Assembly (NCBI GenBank): GCA_049299895.1
Contig: JBAQYF010000019.1
Span: 71,709-135,708, forward strand
From: Candidatus Altiarchaeia archaeon
GTDB lineage: Archaea > Altiarchaeota > Altiarchaeia > IMC4 > QMZM01
Direction of reading: 5' to 3'
DNA length: 64,000 nt
The position numbers and the translations under genes were made by a program. The notes below the pieces were generated by a model that did no database searches, was not told where the DNA came from, and saw only the letters and a list, made by a program, of their open reading frames with translations. Numbering within the stretch: the first letter of the stretch is position 1; every line of letters starts with the position of its first letter. Positions 16,573-47,435 of this stretch are shown piece after piece.

Positions 16573-18072
16573 CTATTCGACTATCACGTGCGCGTCTTTC
16601 AGGTCCTTGTCCACCTTCAGGAAGAGCGCAAGGAATGCGCCGAATACAAGTATCAGGGACGCTATGTAAAAGTCCGTCCTGTATGCTATTATCTGCGCCT
16701 TGAGTACGACCAGATTCAACACCTGCGCGCGTATGACCGGATCAGCCGTGTTTATCACCGTGTTCTGCGAAAGGGCCAGGACCTGATCCTCGGTCGTGTA
16801 GCGGATGATGGTCGCAAAGAACGCTATCCCGAAGGCCCCCGCGATGTTCCTTGCGAGTGCGAGGATAGACGAGGATATGCCTATCTCATCTTCCGGGACG
16901 ACCGCAGCGATTATGTTCGTCCTCTGCGCCATGCCAAGACCCATCCCGAAAGCAAGGGTAAAGACCGCGAACATTATCTCAGGGGCAGTGGACCTTACGT
17001 CCAGCGTAACGAAAAGCGACATACCAAGAGCTGCAATCAGCGTGCTTAAGGCTATCACGTATCTGGGCTCGACTTTTCCTGTGAGGCTTCCCCCGAGGGG
17101 CGCTGCAAGCATCATCCCGAATGCCATGGGCATAAAGAGGTAACCGGTCGCAGTCGCGTCATACCCCAGGTATATCTGGGCGAAGAGCGGCAGTATGAAT
17201 ATCCCCCCCATCATCCCCATGAAGATAATAAAATTATTCAGCAATGCCCCAAGGAATATCTTCTCCCGCAGGTACTTGAAGTCCACTATCGGCTCCGGGT
17301 GCTTGTCGTCTATCAGATAGAACACGTAGAAGAACGTCAGCCCTATAAAGTAGCAGGCCATCGCTTCCGGGGAACCCCAGCCCCAGTCTACGCCCTTGTC
17401 GAGGACCAGGACGAGCGCAGACAGGGCAACACCCAGGGTTATAGCGCCCCACCAATCGAATTTCAGAGTCTTTCTCTCGGACGTAGATTCATTGATGAAC
17501 ATAAGAGCCATTACCAGGCCAAGGATACCTACAGGGAGATTGATCAAAAACACAGACCTCCAGCCGAAGGTATCTATCAATGGACCGCCTATCAAAGGCC
17601 CGAATACGGAGGCAACGGCAAACGAGGAAGACCATATGCCGAGAGCCATGGAACGCTCCCTCCCCTTCCTGAACGTGACGGCGATGATGGCCATCGCAGT
17701 CGGATAATCCGCGGACCCGGCAATTGCCTGTATGATCCGGAACACTATCATAGAATTAAGGTCCCAGGCAAGGCCAGCAAGGACGGAACCTATTATGAAA
17801 ATGGTAAAACCCATTATGTAGATCTTTTTCCTTCCAAGGGTGTCCCCCAATTTACCCCAGATGGGGACGAATATAGCGTTCGCAAGGATGTAGGCGGTCG
17901 CAATCCATCCTGCGGAGGATACGGTTATGTTAAAATCAGAGATAATCCTGGGCAGCGCCAGATTGACTATTGTCTGGTCTAATCGCCCCAGGAACGTTCC
18001 TACGATGACCGTCAGGAGTATCCACCATTTCAGGCTGCCGTTGCCGTTCTCCGCGCCTTTCCCGTTTTCCAT
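16573..18072 (-). CDS. MFS transporter, DHA2 (EmrB/QacA-like, 14 TM) efflux family
   Basis: 499 aa with MFS signature regions and 14 predicted helices. It is the last gene of the COG1361-MarR-HlyD-MFS same-strand cluster. Confidence 0.85.
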   Translation of the reverse strand: MENGKGAENGNGSLKWWILLTVIVGTFLGRLDQTIVNLALPRIISDFNITVSSAGWIATAYILANAIFVPIWGKLGDTLGRKKIYIMGFTIFIIGSVLAGLAWDLNSMIVFRIIQAIAGSADYPTAMAIIAVTFRKGRERSMALGIWSSSFAVASVFGPLIGGPLIDTFGWRSVFLINLPVGILGLVMALMFINESTSERKTLKFDWWGAITLGVALSALVLVLDKGVDWGWGSPEAMACYFIGLTFFYVFYLIDDKHPEPIVDFKYLREKIFLGALLNNFIIFMGMMGGIFILPLFAQIYLGYDATATGYLFMPMAFGMMLAAPLGGSLTGKVEPRYVIALSTLIAALGMSLFVTLDVRSTAPEIMFAVFTLAFGMGLGMAQRTNIIAAVVPEDEIGISSSILALARNIAGAFGIAFFATIIRYTTEDQVLALSQNTVINTADPVIRAQVLNLVVLKAQIIAYRTDFYIASLILVFGAFLALFLKVDKDLKDAHVIVE

Positions 18073-18088
18073 GATCCGCTTATTCTGT

Positions 18089-18766
18089 TTACTTGTGTAT
18101 CCACATCTTCGCGGACATCCCGTTCATCAGCTCGGGATAGGCGTATACGTCGTATTTCACCTTCACGTCGAACTGCTTCTGCTCCCTCTTGTCGGAGATG
18201 GAGAAAACAAGATCAGAGGACCTCGCCGTGGGGCTTATGCCGTCCACGACGCCGGAGTATTCTTTTGACGGGAACGCATCCACGGTGAACGATACTTTCT
18301 GGCCGACTCTCAGGTCGGATAAGCCTTTGTTCTCTTCCACGCGGCCGACTACCCGCAACTCCTTCGGATCTATTATCCTGACAATGGAATCCGCATTGCT
18401 GACAGCCTGCCCGGGGACGTTCTTCACGGAAAGGACTATGCCGTCTGCGCCCGCGCGTATCACCTGGCCGTCCCTCAGGCGCGCAACAACCTTATTCTTC
18501 GAGACCTTGTCTCCTTCCTTGACCAATACCTCATCCAATACGACCGGCGGAGACGTCGGAGCAAGCCTCGGGCCGAGAGATATCACGGGCGCCGATATCT
18601 CGGACTTTTCCACGTAGACCTTGCTCTGCTCGTCCTGCCAGTAGGCAAGACCCGCTACCGACGCCGCAAGAACGATGAAAGCGATAACGCCGAGCGCTAC
18701 CGGACTATTCCTTATCTTACGGAAAATATTCCTCTTAGGTTTAGCCCCATGACTTTTATTTGGCAT
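18089..18766 (-). CDS. HlyD-family membrane-fusion / periplasmic adaptor protein (EmrA-like)
   Basis: N-terminal TM anchor, then biotinyl-lipoyl-like and beta-barrel segments (VKEGDKVSKNKVVARL..., GQKVSFTVDAFP). It is coupled to the downstream MFS pump. Confidence 0.7.
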   Translation of the reverse strand: MPNKSHGAKPKRNIFRKIRNSPVALGVIAFIVLAASVAGLAYWQDEQSKVYVEKSEISAPVISLGPRLAPTSPPVVLDEVLVKEGDKVSKNKVVARLRDGQVIRAGADGIVLSVKNVPGQAVSNADSIVRIIDPKELRVVGRVEENKGLSDLRVGQKVSFTVDAFPSKEYSGVVDGISPTARSSDLVFSISDKREQKQFDVKVKYDVYAYPELMNGMSAKMWIHK

Positions 18767-19214
18767 TTTCTTCCTCCCCGCACACCCTCATGAATATCTC
18801 CCTGACTTTGTCGAGCGACGCGCACAGCGCCTCCAGATCCCCGTCGGAAAGTTTCGAAAGGTTTTTCTTTATCTCCTCCTTTTCTTCTACGCGATGCTTC
18901 AACATGAACGCCTTCCCGGCTTCGGTCAATGAGATATTTATTATCCTCCGATCGTTCGCATCATAAGTCCTCTCCAGCTTCCCGTCATTTATTAGGCGGT
19001 CGATAAGAAAGGTCGCCCCGGGCTTTGAGACGCAAATATTGCGCCCAAGCTCGGACATGGACATGGAACCCTTACGCAGAAGGATCCCCATTATCATGTA
19101 ATGGCCGGGATTTAGGCCCTCTGTATTCTTGTGCCAGGCCGTGACCTTCCGGTAAAAAAAAGGCAGGAACATATGCAGCCGGTCTGCGATCGCCTCAAGC
19201 TTTTCGTCGTCCAT
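18756..19214 (-). CDS. MarR-family transcriptional regulator
   Basis: Winged HTH ...HYMIMGILLRKGSMSMSELGRNICVSKPGATFLIDRLINDGKLER.... It overlaps the HlyD start by 11 bp. Confidence 0.8.
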   Translation of the reverse strand: MDDEKLEAIADRLHMFLPFFYRKVTAWHKNTEGLNPGHYMIMGILLRKGSMSMSELGRNICVSKPGATFLIDRLINDGKLERTYDANDRRIINISLTEAGKAFMLKHRVEEKEEIKKNLSKLSDGDLEALCASLDKVREIFMRVCGEEENAK

Positions 19215-19220
19215 CTTGCT

Positions 19221-20837
19221 TTATGCACCCTCTTTTTCAGGCAGCGCCTTTACGGCCTTGGACTTCTGCGCCCCAGACCGGGATAAGAATGACACGATGA
19301 GGCCCAGGGCAACGAGTGCCATCAGACCCTCCAGACCCATTATCAAAGGAGATACGCTCCCAGAGGATTGCCTGGCCGAATACTCCTGCCCTGAAAGAAC
19401 GTTCACATCGACGTCCGATAAAACGATCTGATCGACATTGCTGTTCGTCTCTTTATACTGCAGCCGGACCGTCAATGGGATCGTCCCGGACGACGCGTTT
19501 TTATTAACCGTTATCTCGTAGTCTTCTGTGACCGTCGCATCCGAACCAAGGTTCCCGACGTAGGATTCCGCAGGCAGGCTCACCGCATAGTTTTCCGTCG
19601 GCAGCAACCCGACGCTGAGGAACTTTACCTCGGCATAACCCTTGTTGACGACGCTTAAAGTGACGCGGCCCGTAGTCCCGGGGGCAAGGAGATCGCTCCT
19701 TTCCAGGAAGAGTTGCAACTCCGGCTTACCGTCCAGAGCAAGGCCGATGGTCTTCTTAACGGCGTACTTGACCCCTGCGGCATCGAAGTATTCTATCGTA
19801 AGAGGTATCTCGTAAGCCTTTACGTCGGCCTGCGAATCCACCAAAAGCCGGAAGGAAACGTCCTCCTTCCCGTGTTTTCCTATGTCCCCGATGAAGCGCT
19901 CGGACGAACCGATAGGAGTAAAGGGACTAGACAACTGGGCAGTAACGCTCACGTCATTTGCCTGCGCGCTTCCGAGGTTTTCCAGGGATACCGTGACGTT
20001 CACAGCAGTCCCCGGGCTTGCGCTCGTATACGAGACGTCCGATACCTTGAAGTCCGCATCGCTCCTCTGAACGTCGATACTCACGGGAAGATTCTCCTTC
20101 ATGGAATTCCCGGAGATATCCGAATAATCCATCAACAGGGAAAAAGAGCATACCCCAACATTAGAAGGCTTGATGTCATACTCCAGGCGGAAATCCTGCC
20201 CGCGGGAAACGTCCCCGACAAACACCTTGGACGAACCGATCACGGATGCGCACGCGGCCTGGGCCGGATCAGGGCCAAGCGTCGCAGAAACGCCCTTTGC
20301 CCCGTCCTGAGTCGAACCGGTGATGACCAATTTACCCGCGGAATCCTTGGAGAAAACATCCTTCACAACCGCTATCTGGAAGTTCGCACTCACATAGACC
20401 CTCACTGGAAAATCCCAGACAGTCTCCTGATCGTTCTCAAGCTTCCCTGAACTGTCATACCCGTCGTAATTGATCCTGACCTGTATGTTATGCAAGCCTA
20501 TGTACGCGTCCTTTGAAACGGTCAACGTCGAAGATACCGTCTTGATGGAGTAGGGCTCCATCTTCCCAAGATCCCACTTCTTATTGACCGCGATGCTCCC
20601 GGTCTCGGGAACAGACAACTGGACATCCTCTGCCGCCTGAGGCCCCACGTTCCTGATAACTATCTGCAGCACCCCGGAATCGCCAGGTTTCAGGTTCGAA
20701 TCCACGTGCGTCAGATCGTAGTCCAGCACGACGTTCGTCGGGCTGACGCTCTTATCATCGGCAGCATAAGCAGTCATGCTCGATAATACAAACAAGATCG
20801 CCAAAAATATTCCAAAAAAGTTCCGTTTATTTTCCAT
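19221..20837 (-). CDS. Secreted, C-terminally membrane-anchored beta-sandwich repeat surface protein (COG1361 / CARDB-like), paralog 1
   Basis: Signal peptide MENKRNFFGIFLAILFVLSSMTAYA. Repeated approximately 100-aa beta-rich units. C-terminal TM (LIMGLEGLMALVALGLIVSFL) plus a basic tail. Clear paralog of 24178-25749. Confidence 0.6.
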   Translation of the reverse strand: MENKRNFFGIFLAILFVLSSMTAYAADDKSVSPTNVVLDYDLTHVDSNLKPGDSGVLQIVIRNVGPQAAEDVQLSVPETGSIAVNKKWDLGKMEPYSIKTVSSTLTVSKDAYIGLHNIQVRINYDGYDSSGKLENDQETVWDFPVRVYVSANFQIAVVKDVFSKDSAGKLVITGSTQDGAKGVSATLGPDPAQAACASVIGSSKVFVGDVSRGQDFRLEYDIKPSNVGVCSFSLLMDYSDISGNSMKENLPVSIDVQRSDADFKVSDVSYTSASPGTAVNVTVSLENLGSAQANDVSVTAQLSSPFTPIGSSERFIGDIGKHGKEDVSFRLLVDSQADVKAYEIPLTIEYFDAAGVKYAVKKTIGLALDGKPELQLFLERSDLLAPGTTGRVTLSVVNKGYAEVKFLSVGLLPTENYAVSLPAESYVGNLGSDATVTEDYEITVNKNASSGTIPLTVRLQYKETNSNVDQIVLSDVDVNVLSGQEYSARQSSGSVSPLIMGLEGLMALVALGLIVSFLSRSGAQKSKAVKALPEKEGA

Positions 20838-20843
20838 TTTTAT

Positions 20844-20893
20844 AGTTCAACTGTAAAATAGTTCAATATTTGAACTGTTATTTAGTTGAACTA
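20844..20893. promoter_or_regulatory. Operator-like array of AGTTCAA(C/T) half-sites (four copies, two forming the palindrome AGTTCAAtatTTGAACT) in the promoter of the COG1361-marR-hlyD-MFS cluster
   Basis: Sequence tAGTTCAACtgtaaaatAGTTCAAtatTTGAACTgttatttAGTTGAACta lies immediately 5' of the 20837 start codon on the minus strand. Confidence 0.4.
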
Positions 20894-21072
20894 ATTATCC
20901 GCACTAGAAGTTTATAAATAAGAAAAAAAGATCAGATGGTTCACATAATATACCCATAACAGGTTTTATGCGAAGAAAACTTCGCATAAAAACTAGTTAT
21001 ATGAAATTTCAGTTTTGGCTTGTTTTCTTCTTTTTCCGGCGATATATATGCGAAAAAGCCGCTATTCCTATT

Positions 21073-21300
21073 ATGAGAGGCGATAAAATCCAAACCTTTA
21101 CGGCTGTCTTGCATAAAGAAGAAGACATGTATGTCGCCGAATGTCCCGAGGTTGGCACGGTCAGCCAGGGAGAGACCATAGAAGAGGCAGTAAGCAATCT
21201 TAAAGAAGCTACCGAGCTTTATCTCTGTGAATTTCCCCTAAAAGAAAAGACCAAGACCTTGATGACGACTTTCGAGGTCGCCTACAGTGCCAGCGCTTAG
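21073..21300 (+). CDS. hicB: HicB-family antitoxin (UPF0150 / RNase H-like fold)
   Basis: MRGDKIQTFTAVLHKEEDMYVAECPEVGTVSQGETIEEAVSNLKEATELYL is typical of HicB. It is immediately followed by the HicA toxin. The perfect palindrome TTATGCGAAGaaaaCTTCGCATAA at 20966-20989 lies about 85 bp upstream. Confidence 0.65.
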   Translation: MRGDKIQTFTAVLHKEEDMYVAECPEVGTVSQGETIEEAVSNLKEATELYLCEFPLKEKTKTLMTTFEVAYSASA

Positions 21301-21517: not shown

Positions 21518-21574
21518 GAAGCCAAAATCGAAACTCTCGCGAGCGCGCTCGGTGCTGATCGCACTCACATAACA

Positions 21575-21737: not shown

Positions 21738-22007
21738 ATGATAAACGTCGATTTTACCAAGATGAGCTCCAAAGGCCAGATAGTCATACCTCAGGAGATG
21801 AGAAAAGGGCTAGATGTTGGAGACCGGTTCATCATAATCCGCAGAGACAACGAGATCATATTGAAACCAGCAGACGATCTTGAAGAGAATTTCTTGGAAG
21901 ACCTAAATTTCGCAAAAAAGACCCTGGCGTCGCTCGATAAGTACGGCAAGGGCAAGTTCAAGGAGATTGAGGGCAAAGATTTCCTAAAAGAACTTGAGAA
22001 ATGGTAA
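21738..22007 (+). CDS. AbrB/MazE/SpoVT-type antitoxin
   Basis: The N-terminus (SKGQIVIPQEMRKGLDVGDRFIIIRRDNEIILKP) is a swapped-hairpin AbrB-type domain. Its stop overlaps the start of the RelE-like gene. Confidence 0.65.
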   Translation: MINVDFTKMSSKGQIVIPQEMRKGLDVGDRFIIIRRDNEIILKPADDLEENFLEDLNFAKKTLASLDKYGKGKFKEIEGKDFLKELEKW

Positions 22008-22249
22008 CAGTCGCGTACGACAAAAGGTTCGAGCGGACCATCAAAAAAATAAAAGACGAGGGACTAAAGGAAAGAGTTAAGAAGCAGATAGCAAAGGTGG
22101 TAGAAAACCCTGAAACGGGAAAACCGATGCGCTTCATCCGAAAAGACACACGAGAAGTATACGTTCCACCATTTCGTCTATCGTATGCATACCTGAAAGA
22201 AGAGGACAAAATAATATTCCTCGAATTATACCACAAAGACGAACAATAG
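22001..22249 (+). CDS. relE: RelE/ParE-family type II toxin
   Basis: 82 aa. ...PETGKPMRFIRKDTREVYVPPFRLSYAYLKEEDKIIFLELYHKDEQ is the RelE/StbE-like fold pattern. Paired with the upstream AbrB-type antitoxin. Confidence 0.65.
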   Translation: MVTVAYDKRFERTIKKIKDEGLKERVKKQIAKVVENPETGKPMRFIRKDTREVYVPPFRLSYAYLKEEDKIIFLELYHKDEQ

Positions 22250-22420
22250 GAACAGGATTTTTGAACTTCTCGTAGCCTACGGCTCCTCGACCTTTACAGG
22301 GCGCATAACAAAGGACGCTGTCTCATAATTCGGTTTTTTATCATTTTAATTTAAAAGGGTTTTTTAAGCCGTATAAACTGCAATTCGTAACGTGATTTTT
22401 AATTATGGGACAGCCTGAGG

Positions 22421-22487
22421 CATTTAAACGGCTCGTTCGGCCTGCGGCCTCACTTGGCTCAAATCCCCTTAGGGGACTTCGTTAAAT
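22421..22487. repeat. Intergenic repeat copy B (CATTTAAACGGCTCGTTCGGCC...GGCTCAAATCCCC...CTTCGTTAAAT)
   Basis: Shares GGCTCGTTCGGCC, a CAAATCC motif and CTTCGTTAAAT with copy A. Terminal ATTTAAAC / GTTAAAT is an imperfect inverted repeat. It lies directly 3' of the relE cassette. Confidence 0.5.
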
Positions 22488-22551
22488 CACATACATTATA
22501 TTCAATAAATCTGGAGCCCTCAGCATTCAGAAAAATATTTAATATCCAAAG

Positions 22552-23244
22552 TTGTATTATAAGATAAGATATATGATGGAAAATAAAAATTTGGGTAATA
22601 AGATTTTTCAGATCATACTAATTATCGAAGTAATTGCAGTCGCTTTGGTGATTATCTTTGATTTCTTTCTTCCGACATTGGTTATCCTTGCTCTGGCTGC
22701 TTTTTCCCTTTTAATTCGTAAAGAAAACATTAAAGCGCTCGGGTTCAAAAAAATAGACAAGCCATTAAAAATGGTTGGAACTATATTTCTGCTCTCTCTT
22801 ATATGGTCGGTTATCTTGTTGGCATTTATTATGCCGGTTCTTAATCATTTACTTGGAACGACACAGGACTTATCTGCTTTTGAAGACCTGAAAGGCAATA
22901 TTGGAAAACTGATCCCTCTTTTGTTGCTTTCATGGACCCTGGCAGCCTTAGGTGAAGAGACTGCGTATAGGGGTTATCTGCAAAAAATTCTTTATGATCT
23001 TTTTGGAAAAAATAAAATAGGAATTGTTTTAACAATCGCAATCTCTTCGATTCTATTTGGTCTTGCACATACCGAACAAGGCATTATCGGAGTTGTTTTA
23101 ACTACATTTGATGCGGTCATTCTCAGCTTGGTGAAGAGGCATTATAATGACAATTTATGGGCACCAGTATTTTTTCATGGGATAAACAACACTGTCGGTA
23201 TGATAACCTTCTTTTTTATTGGACCAATTTATGGATTTTGGTGA
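22552..23244 (+). CDS. CPBP-family intramembrane metalloprotease (CAAX protease / Abi domain)
   Basis: The EExxxR (EETAYRG), FxxxH (LFGLAHTEQG) and FFHGINN motifs of the CPBP family are present, across 6-7 TM helices. Confidence 0.75.
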   Translation: MYYKIRYMMENKNLGNKIFQIILIIEVIAVALVIIFDFFLPTLVILALAAFSLLIRKENIKALGFKKIDKPLKMVGTIFLLSLIWSVILLAFIMPVLNHLLGTTQDLSAFEDLKGNIGKLIPLLLLSWTLAALGEETAYRGYLQKILYDLFGKNKIGIVLTIAISSILFGLAHTEQGIIGVVLTTFDAVILSLVKRHYNDNLWAPVFFHGINNTVGMITFFFIGPIYGFW

Positions 23245-23342
23245 TAATTTAAACTATTGAAGAGTTCCGGGCTCCAGATTTACTCTGAAATTTCCCTTCA
23301 GGACGTTGCACTAAATTTCAGCCTGCAGGGAATAAAACAGCG

Positions 23343-23410
23343 AGTTGAACGGCTCGTTCGGCTGCGCTTCGCTCGGTCCAAATCCTCGCTTCGGTCGGAC
23401 TACGCATAAT
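23343..23410. repeat. Intergenic repeat copy C (GAGTTGAACGGCTCGTTCGGCTGCGCTTCGCTCGGTCCAAATCCTCGCTTCGGTCGGAC)
   Basis: Shares AACGGCTCGTTCGGC, CCAAATCC and CTTCGG with copies A and B. The right end is degenerate. It lies directly 3' of the CPBP gene. Confidence 0.45.
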
Positions 23411-23485
23411 CCGGTATGTTTAGCGCAATATAAGCACTGCCCAAAAGAAATGTTTATATATTTATTAAAAAACTAATTCATTATC

Positions 23486-23752
23486 ATGAAACTTAATGAC
23501 CAGACGATTATTTCCCTTGTTGCGGGAGCTTGTTTGCTTGGTTTAGTCGTAGTTCTTAAAAATGTGTTATTGATTACGCCGGAGATCTTATCAAGAGACG
23601 TTATCCTTTATATTATCTGCTATACCGGTTTCATAGCTTCTTTTTCTGCAAAAGATAAAACTAAAAAACAATTCAAACAGGATACGCCTTTATTCTGGAG
23701 CATATTGATCGTACTGATAACGCTGGCAATTATTGCGGTGTATGCTTTATAG
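23486..23752 (+). CDS. Small membrane protein (3 TM), hypothetical
   Basis: 88-aa ORF with three hydrophobic helices. It is the last + strand unit before the strand switch. Confidence 0.35.
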   Translation: MKLNDQTIISLVAGACLLGLVVVLKNVLLITPEILSRDVILYIICYTGFIASFSAKDKTKKQFKQDTPLFWSILIVLITLAIIAVYAL

Positions 23753-24181
23753 ACCGGACGGGCTTGCATCTTCCTCCTTCTGGAACAGGGTCAGCCCTTG
23801 GTCGCAGCTTTTGACCGAGATGTTCTTTACAAGGCAGAGCAGGCGCTCTTTTACTTCCAGCAGGAATTCCTCCCCTTTGGAAGTGAGTGCGTAGGTCTTC
23901 TTCCCGGGTTTTCCTTCGGTATACGCCCATTCGCCTTTTATGTATTCCTTGTCTTCGAGCCACTGGAGGACGGGATATATCTTTCCCGGGCTTATTTTGA
24001 CGTTGTATGTCTTCTCAAAGAACTTGATTATGTCGTAGCCGTGGGTGTGGCCCTTCGAGATCAGGGAGAGGCACTGCACTATGGCAAAGGATTTCAGGAA
24101 GTGCTCGTCTATCCACGCAAGCAGGGATCCTTCGTCGATCCCGGCGCATTCACCGCCTTTTGAAGCTGCCGGTTCTTTCAT
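23747..24181 (-). CDS. PadR-family transcriptional regulator
   Basis: PadR winged helix (...YDIIKFFEKTYNVKISPGKIYPVLQWLEDKEYIKGEW...). 4-bp overlap with the upstream COG1361 gene. Confidence 0.8.
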   Translation of the reverse strand: MKEPAASKGGECAGIDEGSLLAWIDEHFLKSFAIVQCLSLISKGHTHGYDIIKFFEKTYNVKISPGKIYPVLQWLEDKEYIKGEWAYTEGKPGKKTYALTSKGEEFLLEVKERLLCLVKNISVKSCDQGLTLFQKEEDASPSGL

Positions 24182-25749
24182 TCCTCTTTATCTTTGTTCT
24201 TTTTCTTGCCTTTGGTTAGAGTATATGCGCCTAGCAATAAAACCAAAACAATAACCCCTGCAAGGACATACGTCATAGTGTTGCCGCTTTCTCCTGCCTG
24301 GACGCTTACTCGCGCAGTCTTGGAGAATACGAGCACTACGCCGTCTTTCGTGCAGCGTATCTCGACAGGAAGGAGGTATTCCTTGACCTTCGCATCGCCG
24401 TCTACTGTGAAACGGATCACTGCGTCTCCTTTCTCGCCCTTGTCCAGGTCGCCTATGTATTCGCTTTTGTCGACGAATTCAAAGGGCTGCTCGCTCTTTT
24501 TCAGGATCCATACTGTCACTGAATCGCATTTGCTTCCCTTGTTTTCTACGTTCACCCGGAGTTCCGCGGAGGCTCCCGCCTTTGCCTGCGTGACCTCTGA
24601 GGACAGGTTGAAGTCCGGGTAGTCCATGACGTCTACTGGAACAATTATCGAAGCATTCTTGTCCGCGTTGTCCGTCTCGTAGCTCAGGGAGAATACCTGC
24701 CCGGTTCTTGCAGGCACTGCGTCCTTGTTTATGTTCGCGTAAAAGGACATTATGCTGTTTGCCCCGGATTTTATCGTTCCAAGATCCTGGGCCTGGACAT
24801 ATGATTTGCTGTTCTCGAAGGGCGCCTGGGGAACATAGACCACGCGCACGTTCTTTATGTCCGTCGTTCCCTGGTTGTCTATCTTGATCTTCAATTGGAC
24901 GTCTGCGTCGCCTGCATGTATCTCTTTTGGGTCGGTCTCGGAAACGGTTATCGATATCTTCGTGTCTCCGACGACTTGCAGCCCAAGAGGCAGGGTCGCG
25001 CTTGCAGGGTTGTGGTTCTTGTCCTTGTAGCTTATGCTCAAGGGGAGAGAGTATGCGCCTGTCGGCAGGCTCTTGTCCAGGTATACCGCGTACTCCAATT
25101 CCTTTTTGCCCCCTGACGCGATATCCCCGAGGAACTGTTTCTCTGAGCCTATCACTTTGATGAGGGCGCTGCCGGTTCCAAGCTGGCCTTCGGAGTCATA
25201 CGCCTCCGCTATTCCCATGTTCTTTATCCTGACTTTGAGGCTTATCGTATCCCCGGGCCGGGGAACGGCATTTGTATTTATTGCTTCGACCACGAATATT
25301 GATTCGCCTTTGACGTTGACGTTTATCTCCCATGCATCGCTCTTGTCGTTCTCCGCTTTTCCGCGCACGTTGTAGCCGTCGTAGGCGGCGGTTACCCGGA
25401 TTGTGTGCAGGCCGATCTGCGCGTTGTCTGCGATGTTGAATTTAGTGGATATGGTTTTGACTTCCCCGGGGAGCATCGTACCCACGTATTCTCTTTTGGA
25501 TATTTTTATGTCTCCTGCGTCGGGTATGTATATCTCCACGTGTTCGGCATTCTGTCCGCCTATGTTCTTTATGACCAACGACATCACTCCCGAGTCTCCG
25601 GGCTGCAGGTTCGTCTGTATCTGGCTGAGCGTGTAGTCCAGCGCGAGCTTCGTCTCGGTCACCGACTGCGCGTATCCCGCAGATACAAAAAGCATCAACA
25701 ATACGCCGTAGAGCATTATCTTTCCCGTTGTTTTATCCGTCTTATCCAT
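24178..25749 (-). CDS. Secreted, C-terminally anchored beta-sandwich repeat surface protein (COG1361 / CARDB-like), paralog 2
   Basis: Signal peptide and C-terminal TM plus a lysine-rich tail. Alignable to paralog 1 (LDYTLSQIQTNLQPGDSGVMSLVIKNIGGQNAEHVEIYIPDAGDI versus LDYDLTHVDSNLKPGDSGVLQIVIRNVGPQAAEDVQLSVPETGSI). Confidence 0.6.
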   Translation of the reverse strand: MDKTDKTTGKIMLYGVLLMLFVSAGYAQSVTETKLALDYTLSQIQTNLQPGDSGVMSLVIKNIGGQNAEHVEIYIPDAGDIKISKREYVGTMLPGEVKTISTKFNIADNAQIGLHTIRVTAAYDGYNVRGKAENDKSDAWEINVNVKGESIFVVEAINTNAVPRPGDTISLKVRIKNMGIAEAYDSEGQLGTGSALIKVIGSEKQFLGDIASGGKKELEYAVYLDKSLPTGAYSLPLSISYKDKNHNPASATLPLGLQVVGDTKISITVSETDPKEIHAGDADVQLKIKIDNQGTTDIKNVRVVYVPQAPFENSKSYVQAQDLGTIKSGANSIMSFYANINKDAVPARTGQVFSLSYETDNADKNASIIVPVDVMDYPDFNLSSEVTQAKAGASAELRVNVENKGSKCDSVTVWILKKSEQPFEFVDKSEYIGDLDKGEKGDAVIRFTVDGDAKVKEYLLPVEIRCTKDGVVLVFSKTARVSVQAGESGNTMTYVLAGVIVLVLLLGAYTLTKGKKKNKDKEE

Positions 25750-26884: not shown

Positions 26885-28062
26885 TTTGTCGCCTCCTTAT
26901 GTTTCCTGATCCTGTGGTCCAATTCTTTGTGCTTTCTTACGTCCAGATAGTGCATCACGTTTTCGTGCACCACCATAAGCGCGGGGTTTAATCCGATCGC
27001 TGCGACTACGCAGTAGAATATCCCTATTGCAAGGGTTGCGCCCAGGTGCTGGAGCATCGGCATGGATGCGAGCATGAGTGCCAGGAACCCCATTATCACT
27101 GTCGACGAAGAGCCGATTATAGCGCCTCCGACTTCTTTCATCGCAAGCCTCATCGATTTTATCTGCGCGTATCCCTTCTCTCTTTCCTCGTTGTATCTTT
27201 CTATGTAGAAGACGCTGTATTCGACTCCCAGCCCAAGGATCATCGCGCCGACCCCGACTGTTGCTATCGAGAGCGCTATGTTAAGCCATCCCATCGTTCC
27301 CATCGTCCATATCAGGCCGAATACGAGGGGTGCGAATACAACGACTCCGTCGCTTCTGGGATTGCTGATAATCAGGAGAACTATAAGTATCGAAAGCGCC
27401 GCAAGGCATATCGTGAATACGGCGTCGCTTTGCAGAGTATCCATCAGGACCACTCGTATCGGCGGCATGCCGGTCAGTTGGACCTTTACCCCCGGAGGCA
27501 CGGGCGATGAATCGATGTCTTTTCGGATGGCTTCTTCAAGGTTCCTGACGGTCTGTTCCTGGCTTCCGAGGTTGGCATTTACCTGGATTATCGTTGCGCT
27601 GTAGTCTTTATTGAATGCGCTTTTTGATTCCGGCACCCTGTCCAGGATGGCCCGTACGCCGGCTGACGTCTGGGGTATGCCCGTTTGTTTGAATATCTGC
27701 GCAAGAGAGTTTACGCTGTCCACTGAGTTCTCGCTTCCTATCTGGTCGCCGAGTTCGGTTATAAGTTTTATCACCCTCGGGTCGCGTATGTCCTGCACTG
27801 CGTCTTTCTGCGTTGCAGAATGGTCTAGACTGATCACCACTATAACTACGTCGTAGCCGCCGAAGGTCTCGCTCACTTTATCCTGGAGCTTCATAATCGG
27901 CATGTCCTTGGGCATCTCTTTGGCCAGGTCCGTTTCCATGCGGATGTTTCCTACCCCCATGCCCAGGAGTAAAGTCAATACCAGAGCCACTATGACTATT
28001 GCATTGGCGTGCCTGCCCTGGAATTCGCCGATCCCTTCTAGCATATCTTCAAAGCCCGACAT
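26881..28062 (-). CDS. MMPL/RND-superfamily half-transporter, subunit 1
   Basis: 393 aa with the same topology. Together the two genes resemble a split 12-TM RND/MMPL exporter. Confidence 0.7.
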   Translation of the reverse strand: MSGFEDMLEGIGEFQGRHANAIVIVALVLTLLLGMGVGNIRMETDLAKEMPKDMPIMKLQDKVSETFGGYDVVIVVISLDHSATQKDAVQDIRDPRVIKLITELGDQIGSENSVDSVNSLAQIFKQTGIPQTSAGVRAILDRVPESKSAFNKDYSATIIQVNANLGSQEQTVRNLEEAIRKDIDSSPVPPGVKVQLTGMPPIRVVLMDTLQSDAVFTICLAALSILIVLLIISNPRSDGVVVFAPLVFGLIWTMGTMGWLNIALSIATVGVGAMILGLGVEYSVFYIERYNEEREKGYAQIKSMRLAMKEVGGAIIGSSSTVIMGFLALMLASMPMLQHLGATLAIGIFYCVVAAIGLNPALMVVHENVMHYLDVRKHKELDHRIRKHKEATK

Positions 28063-29137: not shown

Positions 29138-30244
29138 ATGAGCGAAGTGAGAGGGAACAGGGAGGAAGGCCAGAATGATGCGGAACGTTCTTCTTTTAGA
29201 GCCTCCAGCGTGTTTGAATCCTCAGGAGATGTTACTCCGCCTGCTTCGGGGATTTTTGCCGGCGTATTGGGCATAACGGCGCCTTTGATCGTTGGAGCGT
29301 TGATGGAACAACCAGGGGCGGGAATGATCGTTTCTCTCGGAGGTCTTGCGTTGAGCGGCAGCGGCTCTGTAGGCGCGTTCCGGGAGAGATTTTCTGATCT
29401 TGCCTGCGCTTTTGCCGCGACAAGCCTTGCTATTGCCTGCGGTGTTCTGGTGGCGGCAGATCTTTGGTTTTCCGTATTCTTAATACCGTTGATCGCTTTT
29501 TTCTCGGGGTTGTTCGGGGGGATCAGCCGGCCGCTTGCGCGGGCGTCGGGCCAGTTTATTGTCTTTATGATAATTGCCGCCGGTTTGAACGTGGGCGGCG
29601 GCGGTCTGGTCATTACGGTCTTGCTATTCTGCTTGGGGGCTGCCTGGACTGCGGTTTTATCATTGGTCTTGTATCCCGTTTTTCAGAATAGGGGAACCGG
29701 CGGCGTATATCAGCCTGCGAGAAGGCATACCGCAGAACAGTTGTTGAGCCGGTGGCGGCGTACGCTTGCGCATTTTGGCGGCTGGTTTTATCCCCTGAGG
29801 ATAGGCCTGTGCCTGCTTGTTGCAGGTTTCTTCCAGATGAACTGGCCTTACGGGCACGGTTACTGGATATTGATCACGGTTGCGATCGTCGTGCAGCGCA
29901 GTGTCCACGCGCTTTTGAAGCGGATGCTTCAGCGTGCGTTGGGGACGTTTGCAGGCATCCTTTTTGCAAGCATTTTTTTGTTCTGCGTTCCTCCTCTCTG
30001 GATTGTGATATTAGTCATCGGAGTATTGGCCGCCCTAAGGTCTGCGTACAAAGAGTCGAACTATGCCGCTTACTCGGCAGTTATGACTCTTCTTGTGTTG
30101 TTGCTGCTTGATTACGGCAAAGAGGCCGGTTTGGAGGTTATTATCGACCGTCTATTTTCCACTCTCACGGGTTGCGTAATCGCCCTGGTCTTTGGGTATT
30201 TGTTATGGCCCCGGTCTGTCGGAGAGGAGAAACCCTTAGAATAA
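29138..30244 (+). CDS. Polytopic membrane protein, FUSC/ArAE-like (aromatic acid exporter family) N-terminal module
   Basis: About 10 TM helices. The C-terminal DRLFSTLTGCVIALVFGYLLWP resembles the FUSC family signature. Confidence 0.45.
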   Translation: MSEVRGNREEGQNDAERSSFRASSVFESSGDVTPPASGIFAGVLGITAPLIVGALMEQPGAGMIVSLGGLALSGSGSVGAFRERFSDLACAFAATSLAIACGVLVAADLWFSVFLIPLIAFFSGLFGGISRPLARASGQFIVFMIIAAGLNVGGGGLVITVLLFCLGAAWTAVLSLVLYPVFQNRGTGGVYQPARRHTAEQLLSRWRRTLAHFGGWFYPLRIGLCLLVAGFFQMNWPYGHGYWILITVAIVVQRSVHALLKRMLQRALGTFAGILFASIFLFCVPPLWIVILVIGVLAALRSAYKESNYAAYSAVMTLLVLLLLDYGKEAGLEVIIDRLFSTLTGCVIALVFGYLLWPRSVGEEKPLE

Positions 30245-31800: not shown

Positions 31801-31903
31801 AAACAAAGATTATACCCTTGGCTGTGCCGAGATCCCGCTTCGTCCGGATATCATTGATTTTTTATGCCTTCAATTCGTTTATTAAACTGCCGGCGACCGA
31901 AAG

Positions 31904-32248: not shown

Positions 32249-32916
32249 GGTTCTATGAGGCCGTCTTTCAACCTGATCACCCGGTCGAATTTCGTATGCG
32301 CAAGATGCCATTCCTCGTGCGTGACCATCACTATCGTCTGGCTGTATTCCAGGTTGAAGTTCTTGAAGAGGTCCAGTATGTGCTTCGACGATTCGCTGTC
32401 GAGGTTCGCGCAAGGCTCGTCCGCGTAGAGTATCTTGGGTTTGTGCACAAGCGCCCGGGCGATCGACACGCGTTGCTGCTGCCCGCCCGACAGTTCCGCA
32501 GGCAGGTGGTCCGTTCTCCCGGAGAGGCCGACTACTCCGAGGATCTTTTCTGCTTCCTGCGCGCATCTTTTCTTTGATGCTCCCTGCATGAGGAGAGGAA
32601 GGTATACATTTTCCAGAGCCGTGAGTTCCGGCAGAAGCGCGTAGTCCTGGAATACGTAGCCAAGGTTCTTCAGGCGGAAGTCTATTTTTTTCTTGTCGGA
32701 AAGAGCGCAGGTATGGACCCCGTCCAATATGACGTCTCCGTTCGTCGGTTTGTCGAGTATCCCGAGCTGGTGGAGCAAAGTGCTTTTACCGCTTCCGGAT
32801 GGTCCCATCAACGCTACGTATTCCCCTTTGTCGATTGAGAGGTTCACTCCTTTAAGAGCTTCCAATCTTGTTTTCCCCATTATATAAGTCTTTGTAACGT
32901 CTACTGCATCTATCAA
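32245..32916 (-). CDS. ABC transporter ATP-binding protein (MacB/LolD-type)
   Basis: Walker A GPSGSGKST. Signature LSGGQQQRVSIARAL. Walker B ILYADEP. H-loop present. Confidence 0.9.
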   Translation of the reverse strand: MIDAVDVTKTYIMGKTRLEALKGVNLSIDKGEYVALMGPSGSGKSTLLHQLGILDKPTNGDVILDGVHTCALSDKKKIDFRLKNLGYVFQDYALLPELTALENVYLPLLMQGASKKRCAQEAEKILGVVGLSGRTDHLPAELSGGQQQRVSIARALVHKPKILYADEPCANLDSESSKHILDLFKNFNLEYSQTIVMVTHEEWHLAHTKFDRVIRLKDGLIEP

Positions 32917-32920
32917 GTTC

Positions 32921-34117
32921 TCACCCCCTGATCAGATCTAGTGCATCCCTTTTGGCCATCTGGTAAGCCGGGATCGCCGAGCCTATTACCGCCGCGATGA
33001 ATAGCAGGGACGCCCTACCGATTGCTTCCGAGTCGGATAGCTGCAGGCTGATATTGCCTATCGGAAAGGGTATCGGGTGTTCTTTTGTATAAGGCGATAG
33101 AACGTACTGCATGAAGGAATATCCGAGGATCATCCCGAGCAAGGCATAGAACGCCGCCTGGAAGATGAATGACATGATTATCGCATCCCTGTCTATGCCT
33201 ATTGCCTTTTCCACGCCTATCTGGCGCTTCTTTCCGACGATGCTGACGAATATGACGACGAATATCACTATGAATGCTACGATGATGCCTATCAGGCTGA
33301 ATATGTCCCTGATCCTGCTTAACGTGTCTTCTATCATCCTGAGTATCCCCGCATAGTCTCTCCAGGTACGGATCTCTTCTCTTACGCCCGCAGACATGAG
33401 CTGAATCCTTGCGCCTTCTGCCGCCAGGCCCGACGTAGTCTTGAGCGCTATTTCGTTTGCCGCATCCTCCGTTCCGAGCACCTCTTCAAGGTCTTTTATG
33501 TTGACGTATGCGGCTGCGTCTGATGCAAAAAAATTTGTTGTGTATATTCCTTTGACGCGAAAGTCCTTTGTTATCCCGCCCATCGAGAGGGACACGGTAT
33601 CGCCGACTACAACTCCGCCGAGGGACCTTGCTTCCATCAGGGCTCCGTACCCGCCGGAAACCTCGCGGCCGAGGACTATCTCGTCCCGGTCGAGGCGGCT
33701 TATGAATTCGCCCGACAGGACGGAGGAGTGTATCTTTGTCACGGAGGATTCGTCCCTTGCGTCAACGCCGTAGACGGTCACTCCGGTGTTCTTGTCTTTG
33801 TAGTACACCGAGGCCTGTGTCTTCAGCCTGGGAGAGACCCCGAGGACATAGGGCAGATGTTCAAGCTTCGCCTTCAAGCCGGATACGCCGTCTATATAAC
33901 GAGCCCCGACACCGGGCTCTATCATGACGTTGCCGGTCTGGTAGTCTATCATCTGCTCATTGAATTTTGCGGTCACGCCCCCAAGGATGCTCGAAACGAA
34001 TACTATCTGGAGGTAGACGAGCGACAGCACGAATACCGTGAACACGTTTATCCCGACGCTTCCCCTTTGGACCGACCTGTATGCGAGGAAGGACGCGACC
34101 CGCAGCCGAGAGAACAT
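32921..34117 (-). CDS. ABC transporter permease, FtsX/MacB-like (4 TM with large extracytoplasmic domain)
   Basis: N-terminal TM, an approximately 230-aa extracytoplasmic domain, then a 3-TM FtsX-like C-terminus. Probable start MFSRLRVASF. Confidence 0.75.
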   Translation of the reverse strand: MFSRLRVASFLAYRSVQRGSVGINVFTVFVLSLVYLQIVFVSSILGGVTAKFNEQMIDYQTGNVMIEPGVGARYIDGVSGLKAKLEHLPYVLGVSPRLKTQASVYYKDKNTGVTVYGVDARDESSVTKIHSSVLSGEFISRLDRDEIVLGREVSGGYGALMEARSLGGVVVGDTVSLSMGGITKDFRVKGIYTTNFFASDAAAYVNIKDLEEVLGTEDAANEIALKTTSGLAAEGARIQLMSAGVREEIRTWRDYAGILRMIEDTLSRIRDIFSLIGIIVAFIVIFVVIFVSIVGKKRQIGVEKAIGIDRDAIIMSFIFQAAFYALLGMILGYSFMQYVLSPYTKEHPIPFPIGNISLQLSDSEAIGRASLLFIAAVIGSAIPAYQMAKRDALDLIRG

Positions 34118-34121
34118 TTTT

Positions 34122-35294
34122 TTACTTCCTGCGAATAAACAGAAGGACCAGGGCAATGACGGCGACTGCTGCGACTACGGCGATATATCCCGTATTCCCG
34201 CCGCTCTTCTCCAACACGCGCACCGGGATAACCTCTTCCAGGACGTGGGGGCCTAAGCCGTCCTCGTAGCGTATCTCCAGAGAGTAACTGTGATTTCCCG
34301 GAGCTTTCGGAACGTAGGAGAACACCGCAGGAGCATCGTCGTCGGGCTTGAGCTTGCCGAGGTAGGAAACAAGGCTTGTTCCGTCCGGCAGAGACAGCGT
34401 CGCACGCACATTCTCCGCATCCCCGTCCCCCATGTTCTCGACGCGCATCTGTATCTCCGCAGGTTCGCCCGCAACGAATCCGGCGTCCGGAGACCTTTTC
34501 AGGCTTTCTATCCCGAGTTTTGCGGGGTTCTCGACCATCACGCCTATCTGCCCGGCGGATGAATAGCTCTTGCCTCTCTCGTCCACGTAAGACACTTGGA
34601 GCGGTATCGAATACGAACCGGTCGCAACTGATTCGTCGACGACAAAAGACAACTCCAGCAACGTCTCGTTCCCCGGAGGCAGGGATTCTATGACCTTCTG
34701 GCCCGCACCGAGTATTATGAATTTATCGGAAGAAGCGGACACTTTAACGTTCCTCGCAGTGCCGGTGCCGATGTTTCTGTAAGACGCGCGGACGGAAAAA
34801 ACGCCCCCCGAACTGCCGGCCGATCCCATCGCAGGAACATTGTAGACCACGTCCGGGACCCCTACGACTTTTACGTTTATATCATACTCCCGCTCGATTG
34901 CGCCGCGCGATATTTTCACCGTTAGGGGGTACACACCTGACACTGCGCCCGCATCCACCGCAAGGTAATAAGCGTAGTCCTTGGAGCATCCCATGCATAT
35001 CTGCGGCTCGTCCATGTTGCGACCGGTCTTCAGGTAAAAGGGGTACTTCACGTCCAGGGAAACGATAGCGTTATCCATGCTTGCGTTCCCGTAGCCCGGG
35101 ACGCCGTATATGTAGTCGTTATAGACGCGGACCTTCACTGTCACGTCCCGGCCCGGCTCTACCGGTTCGGGAGAAACCTCTTCTGAGACTACCCGCATGG
35201 ACGGAGAATCCTTTATCAACGCGTCCGCCTCCGAGTACGCAGTGAGCGCAAAAAGCGCAGCCAGCAAAAATACAAATAAAACAGGGTTTTTCAT
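34122..35294 (-). CDS. Secreted, C-terminally anchored beta-sandwich surface protein (COG1361/CARDB-like), third module partner
   Basis: Signal peptide MKNPVLFVFLLAALFALTAYS. C-terminal TM (YIAVVAAVAVIALVLLFIRRK). Same architecture as the two COG1361-like paralogs, and first gene of the ABC cluster. Confidence 0.55.
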   Translation of the reverse strand: MKNPVLFVFLLAALFALTAYSEADALIKDSPSMRVVSEEVSPEPVEPGRDVTVKVRVYNDYIYGVPGYGNASMDNAIVSLDVKYPFYLKTGRNMDEPQICMGCSKDYAYYLAVDAGAVSGVYPLTVKISRGAIEREYDINVKVVGVPDVVYNVPAMGSAGSSGGVFSVRASYRNIGTGTARNVKVSASSDKFIILGAGQKVIESLPPGNETLLELSFVVDESVATGSYSIPLQVSYVDERGKSYSSAGQIGVMVENPAKLGIESLKRSPDAGFVAGEPAEIQMRVENMGDGDAENVRATLSLPDGTSLVSYLGKLKPDDDAPAVFSYVPKAPGNHSYSLEIRYEDGLGPHVLEEVIPVRVLEKSGGNTGYIAVVAAVAVIALVLLFIRRK

Positions 35295-35408
35295 TTTTTA
35301 ATGTAAACAACCAATTAGTTGTTTATAATAGAAAAAGATGAGTTAATAAGCCACAGCACACAGAAAAGAACCAAGAGACGGTTTATTTGCAATGCGCAGC
35401 AAAGAGAC

Positions 35409-36236
35409 ATGGACAACAAAAAGCTCCTACAGGACATCGGGCTGAACAAATATGAAGCCGCATCGTACCTGTTCCTTGCGGAAAACGGCGTAAGCGACGC
35501 GAACACGGTGAGCGAATGCGCAAACGTCCCGCTTGGAAAGATGTATGCGACGCTGACCAGCCTGAAATCCATGGGGCTTATCGAAGTGCAGGAGAGCCGC
35601 CCGAAAAAGTATAAGGCGATCCCTCCGGAAAAGGCCTTTAAAGAGGTCTACGAACAGAAGAAAAAAGACTCCGAAAAAGAGCTGGGGAGATACCGGGAAA
35701 CCATCGAGAAACTGAGAAAAGATATCAGGCCCGAAAAGAAAGGAAAGGAGCCGGACACATTCTGGACGCTCCTCACAGCCGACAAAGAAAGGGTCGCGGC
35801 CCTGAAGAATGTGATAGACGAATGCGAAAAAGAGTTCTGCTTCCTGATGCCGGCAAAGGTCATCAGGCGCAGAGGAATAGTCGAAGAAGTCGCGCCAAGG
35901 ATCACAAGACACTTCTTCAGCAATATCAAGTCGGGCGTGAGAGCGAGAATAATCTTCCCGGAAAAAGAGTTCATAAGAGAAAAACATCCGCTACCGGACG
36001 ATGCGGACCTCTCCAAGGTGGAGGCAAGGATCCTCCCGAGCGAGAACGGCTATTACCTGGTGGACAACAAGCTGGTGATGATCCCGGTATTCGATCCCTC
36101 CGAGGAGAACAGCATATTCGGGATGATAAAGATAAGCGACTCGAATTATGCATCAAGGGTTAAAAAGAGGTTCGAGGAAGCATGGAAGAAAGCAGCGCCC
36201 ATAGACCTTGAAAAGGAATTGGGCAGGGAGCAATAA
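35409..36236 (+). CDS. TrmB-family transcriptional regulator
   Basis: N-terminal TrmB HTH (LLQDIGLNKYEAASYLFLAENGVSDANTVSECANVPLGKMYATLTSLKSMGLIEV). It is divergent from the COG1361-ABC cluster. The inverted repeat TAAACAAC-caatta-GTTGTTTA at 35304-35325 lies in the shared promoter. Confidence 0.75.
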   Translation: MDNKKLLQDIGLNKYEAASYLFLAENGVSDANTVSECANVPLGKMYATLTSLKSMGLIEVQESRPKKYKAIPPEKAFKEVYEQKKKDSEKELGRYRETIEKLRKDIRPEKKGKEPDTFWTLLTADKERVAALKNVIDECEKEFCFLMPAKVIRRRGIVEEVAPRITRHFFSNIKSGVRARIIFPEKEFIREKHPLPDDADLSKVEARILPSENGYYLVDNKLVMIPVFDPSEENSIFGMIKISDSNYASRVKKRFEEAWKKAAPIDLEKELGREQ

Positions 36237-47432: not shown

Positions 47433-47435
47433 TTT

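Follow-up and report, generated by a model that had tools for sequence, protein, structure and literature searches.

In three loci of a 64,000-nucleotide stretch of DNA from a Candidatus Altiarchaeia archaeon (contig JBAQYF010000019.1, positions 71,709 to 135,708; hereafter the window), surface proteins of one CARDB-repeat family are encoded together with export pumps, and this pairing recurred without exception in the about 120 archaeal loci that we examined outside the window. The gene linkage is near-obligate in both directions, and we lean, if only slightly, towards reading the CARDB protein as an accessory subunit that works on the extracytoplasmic side and is dedicated to inducible pumps for hydrophobic compounds. 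The three loci are minus-strand operons lying within 20 kb, each made up of an export pump, a small regulator and an anchored CARDB surface protein (Table 1): the gene order (5' to 3') is CARDB-MarR-HlyD-MFS (major facilitator superfamily) in locus 1, MMPL-MMPL-CARDB-PadR in locus 2 and CARDB-FtsX-ABC (ATP-binding cassette) in locus 3, where a TrmB gene is divergent. A preliminary description, made from the letters of the DNA, had reported this three-part layout with a different exporter and a different regulator each time; the open reading frame (ORF) list together with Pfam and NCBIfam profile searches confirmed it, as well as every gene that had been named.

The three surface proteins had been described as COG1361/CARDB-like, and all of them do match CARDB (PF07705), scoring 36.0, 46.4 and 45.3 bits where the cutoff is 22.7. 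Two of the three occur at 100% identity in a Candidatus Altiarchaeia MAG (metagenome-assembled genome) at NCBI, under the tags WAX07_06650 and WAX07_06740. CARDB1 and CARDB2 align as clear paralogues, with 31% identity over 306 aa (E 2e-40); the relation of CARDB3 to these two is confined to the level of domains (24-26% identity over 137-167 aa, E 6e-9 and 9e-13). A family hidden Markov model (HMM) built from CARDB3 and 15 homologues matches CARDB1-3 and no other window ORF of at least 60 aa, and all three of these members adjoin pumps. The NCBI name of a 30%-identical homologue is "COG1361 S-layer family protein"; the gene context argues against a lattice-forming S-layer protein, with the gene always lying within a regulated pump operon. 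A profile search of 1.84 billion representative sequences retrieved 3,140 proteins with E <= 1e-30, a number that rises to 11,334 with E <= 1e-10. Most of the top matches are full-length and of 370-440 aa, and a 16-sequence alignment indicates that one architecture is kept from DPANN lineages to Methanoperedens.

This architecture agrees with the signal peptide, beta-sandwich repeats and C-terminal transmembrane (TM) anchor with basic tail that had been read from the translations. Each of CARDB1-3 has a Sec signal peptide of its own and a plain helix near the C-terminus, and neither a lipobox nor a sortase-type motif is present in the sequences; a crude hydropathy scan found an N-terminal plus a C-terminal hydrophobic segment in CARDB1 and CARDB3, and in CARDB2 the C-terminal segment lies above the threshold and the signal sequence is visible in the translation. 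An AlphaFold2 model of CARDB3, computed from the 16-sequence alignment, has a mean predicted local distance difference test (pLDDT) score of 84. In it, residues 4-28 form a signal helix and residues 368-389 a C-terminal helix that precedes RRK, with three all-beta domains in between. Comparison of this model with the PDB using Foldseek returned only tandem immunoglobulin (Ig)-like matches with TM-scores of at most 0.37, amongst them ciliary central-pair proteins, integrin chains, complement/TEP1 and pilins; we therefore regard the protein as a membrane-anchored beta-sandwich stalk with no recognisable enzymatic, channel or carrier fold. Conservation within the stalk is uneven: in a 69-member clade of ABC-linked proteins, which is dominated by Methanosarcina, 17 of the 104 columns of the membrane-proximal domain are at least 90% conserved, compared with 9/116 and 7/113 in the other two domains. 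The conserved signature of the membrane-proximal domain is DxDAPAVF...YxDDxGxH and includes D320, P322, F325, D345 and G348. A CxxC pair in the outermost domain of CARDB3 (C100, C103), which may be a disulfide or a metal site, occurs in 25 of 137 family members, all from a DPANN-type subclade, and was dropped as a general clue to the family.

In order to analyse the linkage starting from the surface protein, we scanned one genome per GTDB species with a 4-sequence alignment of the CARDB3 subfamily, which yielded 72 loci whose six-frame ORFs were searched with the window proteins; broader alignments of 16 and 8 sequences were too divergent for retrieval, and the forward test is therefore limited to this subfamily. 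The permease gene came next on the same strand in all 66 loci having at least 400 nt downstream, and the ATPase was present in all 54 having at least 2.2 kb downstream. These loci come from Woesearchaeota, Aenigmatarchaeota, Altiarchaeota, Forterrea/Ainarchaeum, Bathyarchaeota, Hydrothermarchaeota, Methanoperedens and many Methanosarcina, including cultured strains. The sole bacterial-labelled match of the GTDB scan, on a contig (L070) of a Prolixibacteraceae metagenome-assembled genome (MAG), has a permease that matches the window permease with E 6e-146, in the same E-value range as the Methanosarcina permeases, and this contig is probably a mis-binned Methanosarcina fragment.

For the reverse test 80 metagenome loci were retrieved by means of the MMPL half alone (36-89% identity), of which 57 were testable: CARDB was adjacent in every one, directly downstream of the second MMPL half in 55 and upstream in 2. 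Near these loci the commonest regulator was TrmB (28 loci), followed by PadR (10). Homologues at 28-84% identity that we looked up individually, using precomputed Pfam assignments, gave the same picture: relatives of CARDB2 always stood in an MMPL-MMPL-CARDB arrangement with PadR or a divergent TrmB+DUF7436 gene as regulator, including in Methanoperedens and a Nanobdellota MAG, and relatives of CARDB3 always in CARDB-permease-ATPase, some with PadR or TetR. Gene overlaps of 4 bp between CARDB and pump recur in other genomes. The genome-context comparison that the preliminary description had called for thus reveals a conserved module, far beyond chance. Two CARDB-pump modules lie side by side at L006, L090, L111, L127, L131 and L147 (and at L097), as RND (resistance-nodulation-division) plus ABC or ABC plus ABC; such paired modules being frequent in other genomes, the presence of three within 20 kb is an instance of a recurring pattern.

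The class of pump that adjoins a family member is also stable over evolution. When 137 members were labelled by their adjoining pump, the nearest non-identical neighbour belonged to the same class in 134 cases, and a rough, midpoint-rooted neighbour-joining tree of these members needs only two pump-class changes: the 57 RND-linked members fall together in a single clade, which lies among ABC-linked proteins, and the MFS-linked pair is nested within an ABC-linked clade. The ancestral partner hence looks MacB-type, and it looks, as far as this tree can be trusted, as if the family had passed to RND pumps once and, recently, once to an emrRAB-like unit. In line with the latter, relatives of CARDB1 at 38-52% identity are not beside MFS pumps and occur in units of the form (weak MarR_2-like match)-ATPase-CARDB-permease-permease or CARDB-permease-ATPase; among the relatives looked up, only locus L015 (84% identity) keeps the order CARDB-MarR-adaptor-MFS. 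We rejected the idea that the MFS pairing is a one-off accident, as it is retained in L015 and an unrelated locus exists in which a distant relative (24% identity, 645 aa) stands in the order PadR-CARDB-MFS with a 4-bp overlap and no adaptor. The MFS protein of this distant locus is a full-length DHA2 homologue of the window MFS protein (28% identity, E 9e-64), and the MFS pairing therefore arose more than once.

The regulators of these modules are of efflux-repressor types (MarR, PadR, TetR and TrmB), and two loci of the window exhibit palindromes that are candidate operators. In locus 1 the palindrome is located between a TATA-like TTCTTATTTATAA and the CARDB1 start codon, with a score that was reached by none of 1000 shuffles; in L015 both the palindrome and the TATA-like TTCTTATTTATAA are kept, and the sequence between the two diverges. 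Conservation of this putative operator upstream of CARDB1 places CARDB1 as the first gene of the MarR unit. In locus 3 the palindrome lies between the CARDB3 and TrmB genes. Of the 38 loci that have a TrmB/DUF7436 regulator, 21, Methanoperedens among them, carry a corresponding motif, TAAAC[A/C]AC-N6-GTTGTTTA, at the 5' end of the regulator gene (L113, L114, L117, L123, L124, L127, L129, L131, L132, L134, 10 more and window positions 35306-35323). The exact core of the motif occurs 11 times at these gene 5' ends and nowhere else in 1.73 Mb, which makes it a candidate operator of an uncharacterised regulator family. The motif is common to TrmB-linked RND modules elsewhere and to the ABC module of the window, and the presence of one putative regulator-operator pair on both argues that these modules answer to related signals. 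A palindrome upstream of locus 2 was no better than chance (260/1000 shuffles) and is not claimed.

Taken as a mechanism, each locus would be a self-regulated module for detoxification or export, consisting of a pump, a ligand-responsive winged-helix repressor and an accessory protein, whose genes are presumably co-transcribed. The pump, being a MacB-type ABC transporter, a split HAE3/MMPL-type RND transporter or a DHA2 MFS protein with a hairpin-less adaptor, would clear the membrane or its outer face of hydrophobic or amphiphilic molecules, as LolCDE, MacB, YbbAP, HpnN, MmpL and EmrB are known to do. The CARDB protein, exported by Sec and held in the cytoplasmic membrane by its C-terminal helix, would form a stalk of three or four Ig-like domains next to the pump, and the membrane-proximal domain of this stalk would contact the extracytoplasmic domain of the pump; the stronger conservation of the membrane-proximal domain fits, if only indirectly, a contact at that height. 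The stalk could then take over the expelled compound from the membrane surface and guide it into or through the S-layer space or, alternatively, could stabilise and oligomerise the pump, a role comparable to that of MmpS with MmpL or of the adaptors of Gram-positive MacB systems, although the CARDB protein resembles neither in fold or topology. That the surface protein is the physical extracytoplasmic partner of the pump, which the preliminary description had suggested, is plausible.

A close parallel for locus 2 is found in mycobacteria, where single-pass MmpS5 is co-encoded with MmpL5 under the repressor Rv0678 and is needed for pump assembly and function, its extracellular region being indispensable (PMC12122801). 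As in the MmpS-MmpL/MmpR5 system, an MMPL pump and a single-pass protein with an extracytoplasmic domain share one operon under a repressor. MmpS, however, comprises about 140 aa with an N-terminal helix, whereas the CARDB proteins, of 390-540 aa, consist of 3-4 domains behind a cleavable signal peptide and have their helix at the C-terminus; the window pump is, unlike MmpL, split into two 6-TM HAE3-type halves, the CARDB family also serves ABC and MFS pumps, and the Pfam scan gave no MmpS match in the locus proteins. For locus 3, YknXYZ and the S. pneumoniae system Spr0693-0695 are MacB-type systems of single-membrane bacteria with adaptors, and these adaptors have been proposed to carry compounds away from the membrane across a periplasm-like zone (PMC5985334). 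Shared with these are a 4-TM permease with a large extracytoplasmic domain, a separate ATPase and a membrane-anchored extracytoplasmic partner, but CARDB3 is not a membrane-fusion protein: it lacks lipoyl, beta-barrel and hairpin domains, and its anchor is C-terminal. MacB-fold transporters with dedicated extracytoplasmic partners are also described in PMC12646458 and PMC7668044 (FtsEX-EnvC, LolCDE-LolA and YbbAP-TesA), although EnvC, LolA and TesA are unrelated in fold to CARDB, which has no recognisable enzymatic or carrier domain. Locus 1, finally, has the same order and family content as the emrRAB operon, which encodes the MarR-type regulator EmrR, the adaptor EmrA and the DHA2 MFS pump EmrB, and this order is kept in L015; locus 1 differs in being headed by an extra CARDB gene, in its hairpin-less adaptor of 225 aa and in the lack of TolC among the scanned genes. 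A bolder version of the favoured reading would make the CARDB stalks the archaeal functional equivalent of periplasmic adaptors, a structurally unrelated, C-terminally anchored Ig class serving ABC, RND and MFS pumps alike and providing a way out for hydrophobic compounds through the pseudo-periplasm and S-layer or, in double-membraned Altiarchaeia, towards the outer membrane; this we put forward as speculation of low likelihood.

Several observations weigh against an accessory subunit. The fold is that of a generic tandem Ig-like stalk, and the Foldseek comparison with the PDB provided no specific functional match for CARDB3. The repeat unit of the family is found, in 6-26 matched stretches, in giant proteins of 2,000-7,000 aa as well, an occurrence that fits a generic surface role. 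The sequence of the TM helix is not conserved in the ABC-linked clade (0/28 columns at least 90% conserved). At locus 3 the similarities are incongruent: the window permease and ATPase are most similar to those of Methanosarcina (L041-L083; 55-58% and 59-65% identity) and only 33% and 54% identical to those of Altiarchaeota L016, but CARDB3 is most similar to DPANN/Altiarchaeota proteins (up to 43% identity; 43% to L016) and only 27-30% identical to those of Methanosarcina, so that either partners have been exchanged within the operon or the rates of CARDB evolution are very unequal, being faster in Methanosarcina. Over the pairs compared, similarities do correlate (Spearman 0.73 for CARDB-permease versus 0.83 for permease-ATPase), values that are confounded by phylogeny. 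Furthermore, a fourth efflux-type gene of the window, encoding a FUSC_2 (fusaric-acid-resistance-like) protein of 368 aa between loci 2 and 3 (29138-30244, plus strand), has no CARDB partner in the Pfam scan, and the sampling behind both the counts and the tree is biased toward two subfamilies.

The first four of these points are also what speaks for a different role, in which the CARDB protein would share the regulation of the pump but not its mechanics: as a protective surface shield or decoy it would trap the toxic compound that the pump expels, without joining the pump in a stable complex, much as LanI immunity lipoproteins act beside LanFEG exporters; control of the modules by inducible repressor-type regulators would suit such a role as well. 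An essentially obligate linkage in both directions fits a subunit better, however, and the stability of the pump-class association over deep divergence, the frequent overlaps of stop and start codons and the concentration of conservation in the membrane-proximal domain point the same way, which leaves the independent shield as a possible explanation of modest likelihood.

The direction of service could also be reversed, with the CARDB protein as client of the pump, either supplied by it with a lipid or glycan for modification or anchoring or extracted by it, in the manner of LolCDE, into the cell wall or S-layer. The best scores of the locus 3 permease and ATPase are indeed against LolCE/LolD models, HAE3/MMPL relatives export lipids, and the NCBI label of family members refers to the S-layer. 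Against this stands the pairing of a single family with three mechanistically unrelated pump classes, a proton-coupled MFS antiporter amongst them; the proteins also have a Sec signal peptide of their own and a plain C-terminal helix, lacking any lipobox or sortase-type motif, and repressors of the drug-efflux type would be odd for envelope biogenesis. We thus consider the client role improbable.

The adaptor gene of locus 1 raises the matter of the cell envelope, since the preliminary description had compared the loci with tripartite efflux assemblies and pointed to the membrane-fusion protein as a two-membrane device. In bacterial tripartite pumps it is the alpha-hairpin of the adaptor that reaches the outer-membrane factor. 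In the alignment of the HlyD protein to 5xu0, query residues 77-101 correspond to chain residues 26-50 and query residues 98-182 to chain residues 137-221, so that the chain between 50 and 137 has no counterpart in the query; in that to the HlyD-type 8dck chain the alignment jumps from chain position 128 to 325. The alpha-helical hairpin is thus absent. This conclusion rests on alignments to solved adaptors, a single-sequence AlphaFold2 model (pLDDT 44.8) having been left unused. The best structural relatives of the protein include EmrA (4tko), and its homologue in L015 carries Beta-barrel_YknX. Hairpin-less adaptors are known, for example BesA of Borrelia (PMC8277102): the locus 1 adaptor resembles BesA in being wholly devoid of the helical hairpin, but the partners of BesA, in a diderm, are an RND pump and an outer-membrane factor, whereas the locus 1 protein accompanies an MFS pump in an archaeon, with no outer-membrane factor seen. 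Gram-positive bacteria, too, commonly have adaptors, whose presumed place of action is a periplasm-like zone (PMC5985334). The HlyD gene therefore says nothing about a second membrane and should not count as outer-membrane evidence in the source lineage, and the three loci give no evidence either way on the number of membranes in the source organism. The envelope question itself was apt in one respect: the source is labelled Candidatus Altiarchaeia, and Ca. Altiarchaeum hamiconexum has two membranes, with a periplasm of about 32 nm (PMC4460559).

That the loci encode envelope-spanning tripartite machines of a double-membraned archaeon, with CARDB as outer-membrane factor or as bridge to it, is nevertheless highly improbable. 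The label Candidatus Altiarchaeia on the source, the membrane-fusion protein of locus 1 and the match between the three pump classes and exactly those that use adaptors in diderm bacteria (PMC8277102) would favour it. Yet the one adaptor present lacks the part that docks to an outer-membrane factor, and loci 2 and 3 have no adaptor at all. No OEP/TolC family appeared in the Pfam matches of genes in or flanking the loci or of other scanned window genes, some small ORFs remaining unscanned. The CARDB3 model is a C-terminally anchored string of three beta-sandwiches rather than a barrel or channel, and the estimated CARDB length of about 12-16 nm is too short for a 32-nm periplasm. Identical modules are, moreover, widespread in Methanosarcina (a single-membraned lineage), Methanoperedens and many DPANN lineages, Woesearchaeota and Aenigmatarchaeota among them, and the source is a MAG of about 50% GC for whose lineage a double membrane is not established. 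The tripartite flavour of the preliminary description is thus not upheld. Coincidental adjacency of unrelated ordinary S-layer or surface proteins, for which only the generic nature of CARDB/Ig-like domains could be adduced, is refuted by the relatedness of the three proteins, the unbroken counts of both linkage tests and the phylogenetically stable pairing.

Taken singly, the pumps and regulators of these modules belong to known families and are ordinary representatives of them. The near-obligate association of several pump classes with a single Ig-repeat family, on the other hand, seems not to have been described, and neither does the TrmB/DUF7436 operator that modules share: no description of the CARDB-pump linkage was found in the searchable literature, although neighbourhood databases may already list the adjacency. 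To our knowledge, archaeal efflux and lipid export are almost unstudied at the level of assemblies, and with regard to how an expelled compound passes the S-layer space, the CARDB family, which seems to accompany two classes of pump obligately and a third occasionally, is a concrete candidate for the missing extracytoplasmic component. The annotation of such genes as "S-layer family protein" or "hypothetical" would benefit from correction, the shared TrmB/DUF7436 operator provides a handle for finding inducing compounds, and the modules are present in genetically tractable Methanosarcina.

Table 1. Genes and candidate operators of the three CARDB-pump loci (window positions)
Feature	Position	Strand	Basis or remarks
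Locus 1: DHA2/EmrB-type MFS efflux permease, 499 aa	16573-18072	-	TIGR00711 286.7 bits, cutoff 230.2
Locus 1: HlyD_3/HlyD_D23 adaptor, 225 aa	18089-18766	-	N-terminal TM helix, lipoyl and beta-barrel domains, no alpha-hairpin
Locus 1: MarR-family regulator, 152 aa, within operon	18756-19214	-	PF01047 39.4 bits, cutoff 24.6
Locus 1: CARDB1, 538 aa, CARDB/NPCBM_assoc/DUF11	19221-20837	-	type-I membrane protein: signal peptide, about four beta-sandwich domains, C-terminal TM and basic tail
Locus 1: candidate operator, palindrome with 24-nt arms and 3-nt spacer	20843-20893		four GTTCAA/TTGAAC half-sites, 83% complementary
Locus 2: PadR-family regulator, 144 aa, final gene of operon	23747-24181	-	63.1 bits, cutoff 27
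Locus 2: CARDB2, 523 aa, paralogue of CARDB1 with same topology	24178-25749	-	Pfam, family HMM
Locus 2: MMPL/HAE3 RND half-transporter b (MMPLb), 380 aa, 6 TM	25742-26884	-	Pfam, NCBIfam, hydropathy
Locus 2: MMPL/HAE3 RND half-transporter a (MMPLa), 393 aa, 6 TM	26881-28062	-	Pfam, NCBIfam, hydropathy
Locus 3: LolD/MacB-type ABC ATPase, 223 aa	32245-32916	-	best scores against LolD, DarD and YbbA models
Locus 3: MacB/LolCE/FtsX-type (type VII ABC) permease, 4 TM	32921-34116	-	FtsX 46.2 bits, cutoff 25.5
Locus 3: CARDB3, 390 aa, signal helix, three beta-sandwich domains, C-terminal TM	34122-35294	-	Pfam, AlphaFold2 model
Locus 3: operator-like palindrome TAAACAAC-N6-GTTGTTTA	35306-35323		114-bp CARDB3/TrmB divergent intergenic region
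Locus 3: TrmB + DUF7436 regulator, divergent from CARDB3	35409-36236	+	Pfam; likely start

In crude hydropathy scans the MFS protein of locus 1 has about 14-15 hydrophobic peaks, and the six TM helices of each MMPL half of locus 2 are arranged as 1+5 with a loop of about 175 aa, so that the two would sum to 12 TM as a heterodimer. The MMPL Pfam score is 113 bits (cutoff 20.5), and the halves reach 235 and 211 bits with TIGR00921, below its cutoff of 351.9, which is set for a full-length protein. The TM helices of the locus 3 permease lie at about residues 36-54, 289-307, 326-344 and 378-396, leaving an extracytoplasmic loop of about 235 aa between TM1 and TM2, and homologues of this permease carry MacB_PCD in precomputed Pfam assignments. 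Its start is most likely ATG 34116, 5 nt past the CARDB3 stop, rather than TTG 34156, and that of TrmB most likely ATG 35409 rather than the listed TTG 35319. Overlaps of 4-11 bp between genes had been reported for the loci in general; four junctions do overlap (MMPLa/MMPLb 4 bp, MMPLb/CARDB2 8 bp, CARDB2/PadR 4 bp and MarR/HlyD 11 bp), while the remaining ones are gaps of 4-16 nt.

The window has a GC content of about 50%, with two stretches of about 0.39 (2001-4000 and 22001-24000) compared with about 0.50 elsewhere. The second of these separates loci 1 and 2 and contains a CAAX-protease-like gene (22552-23244), with a HicB-like ORF (20968-21300) just upstream. Beyond locus 1, a short plus-strand ORF (15787-16308) consisting of a Cation_ATPase_N fragment alone lies beside a Na/H exchanger gene (14413-15657, minus strand), 9 kb from a full P-type ATPase gene (4763-7336, plus strand). 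On the L015 contig (6918-11835) genes for a P-type ATPase, a Na/Ca exchanger and a Na/H exchanger directly follow the MFS gene, which suggests partial synteny with rearrangement. At the far end of the window, a minus-strand ORF of 3,646 aa (52972-63912), in which a single CARDB and a single Big_13 domain accompany 10 Laminin_G_3/ConA-like lectin repeats (E 1e-214), probably encodes a huge surface adhesin-like protein; the pump-linked family HMM has no match in this ORF. On the same strand lie an ORF of 696 aa without Pfam match and one of 633 aa with a weak Lcl_C match (48948-52923), both upstream of three tandem paralogous ORFs of about 244 aa (46704-48908), each of which carries a Phage Tail Collar domain (E 1e-24 to 1e-27).

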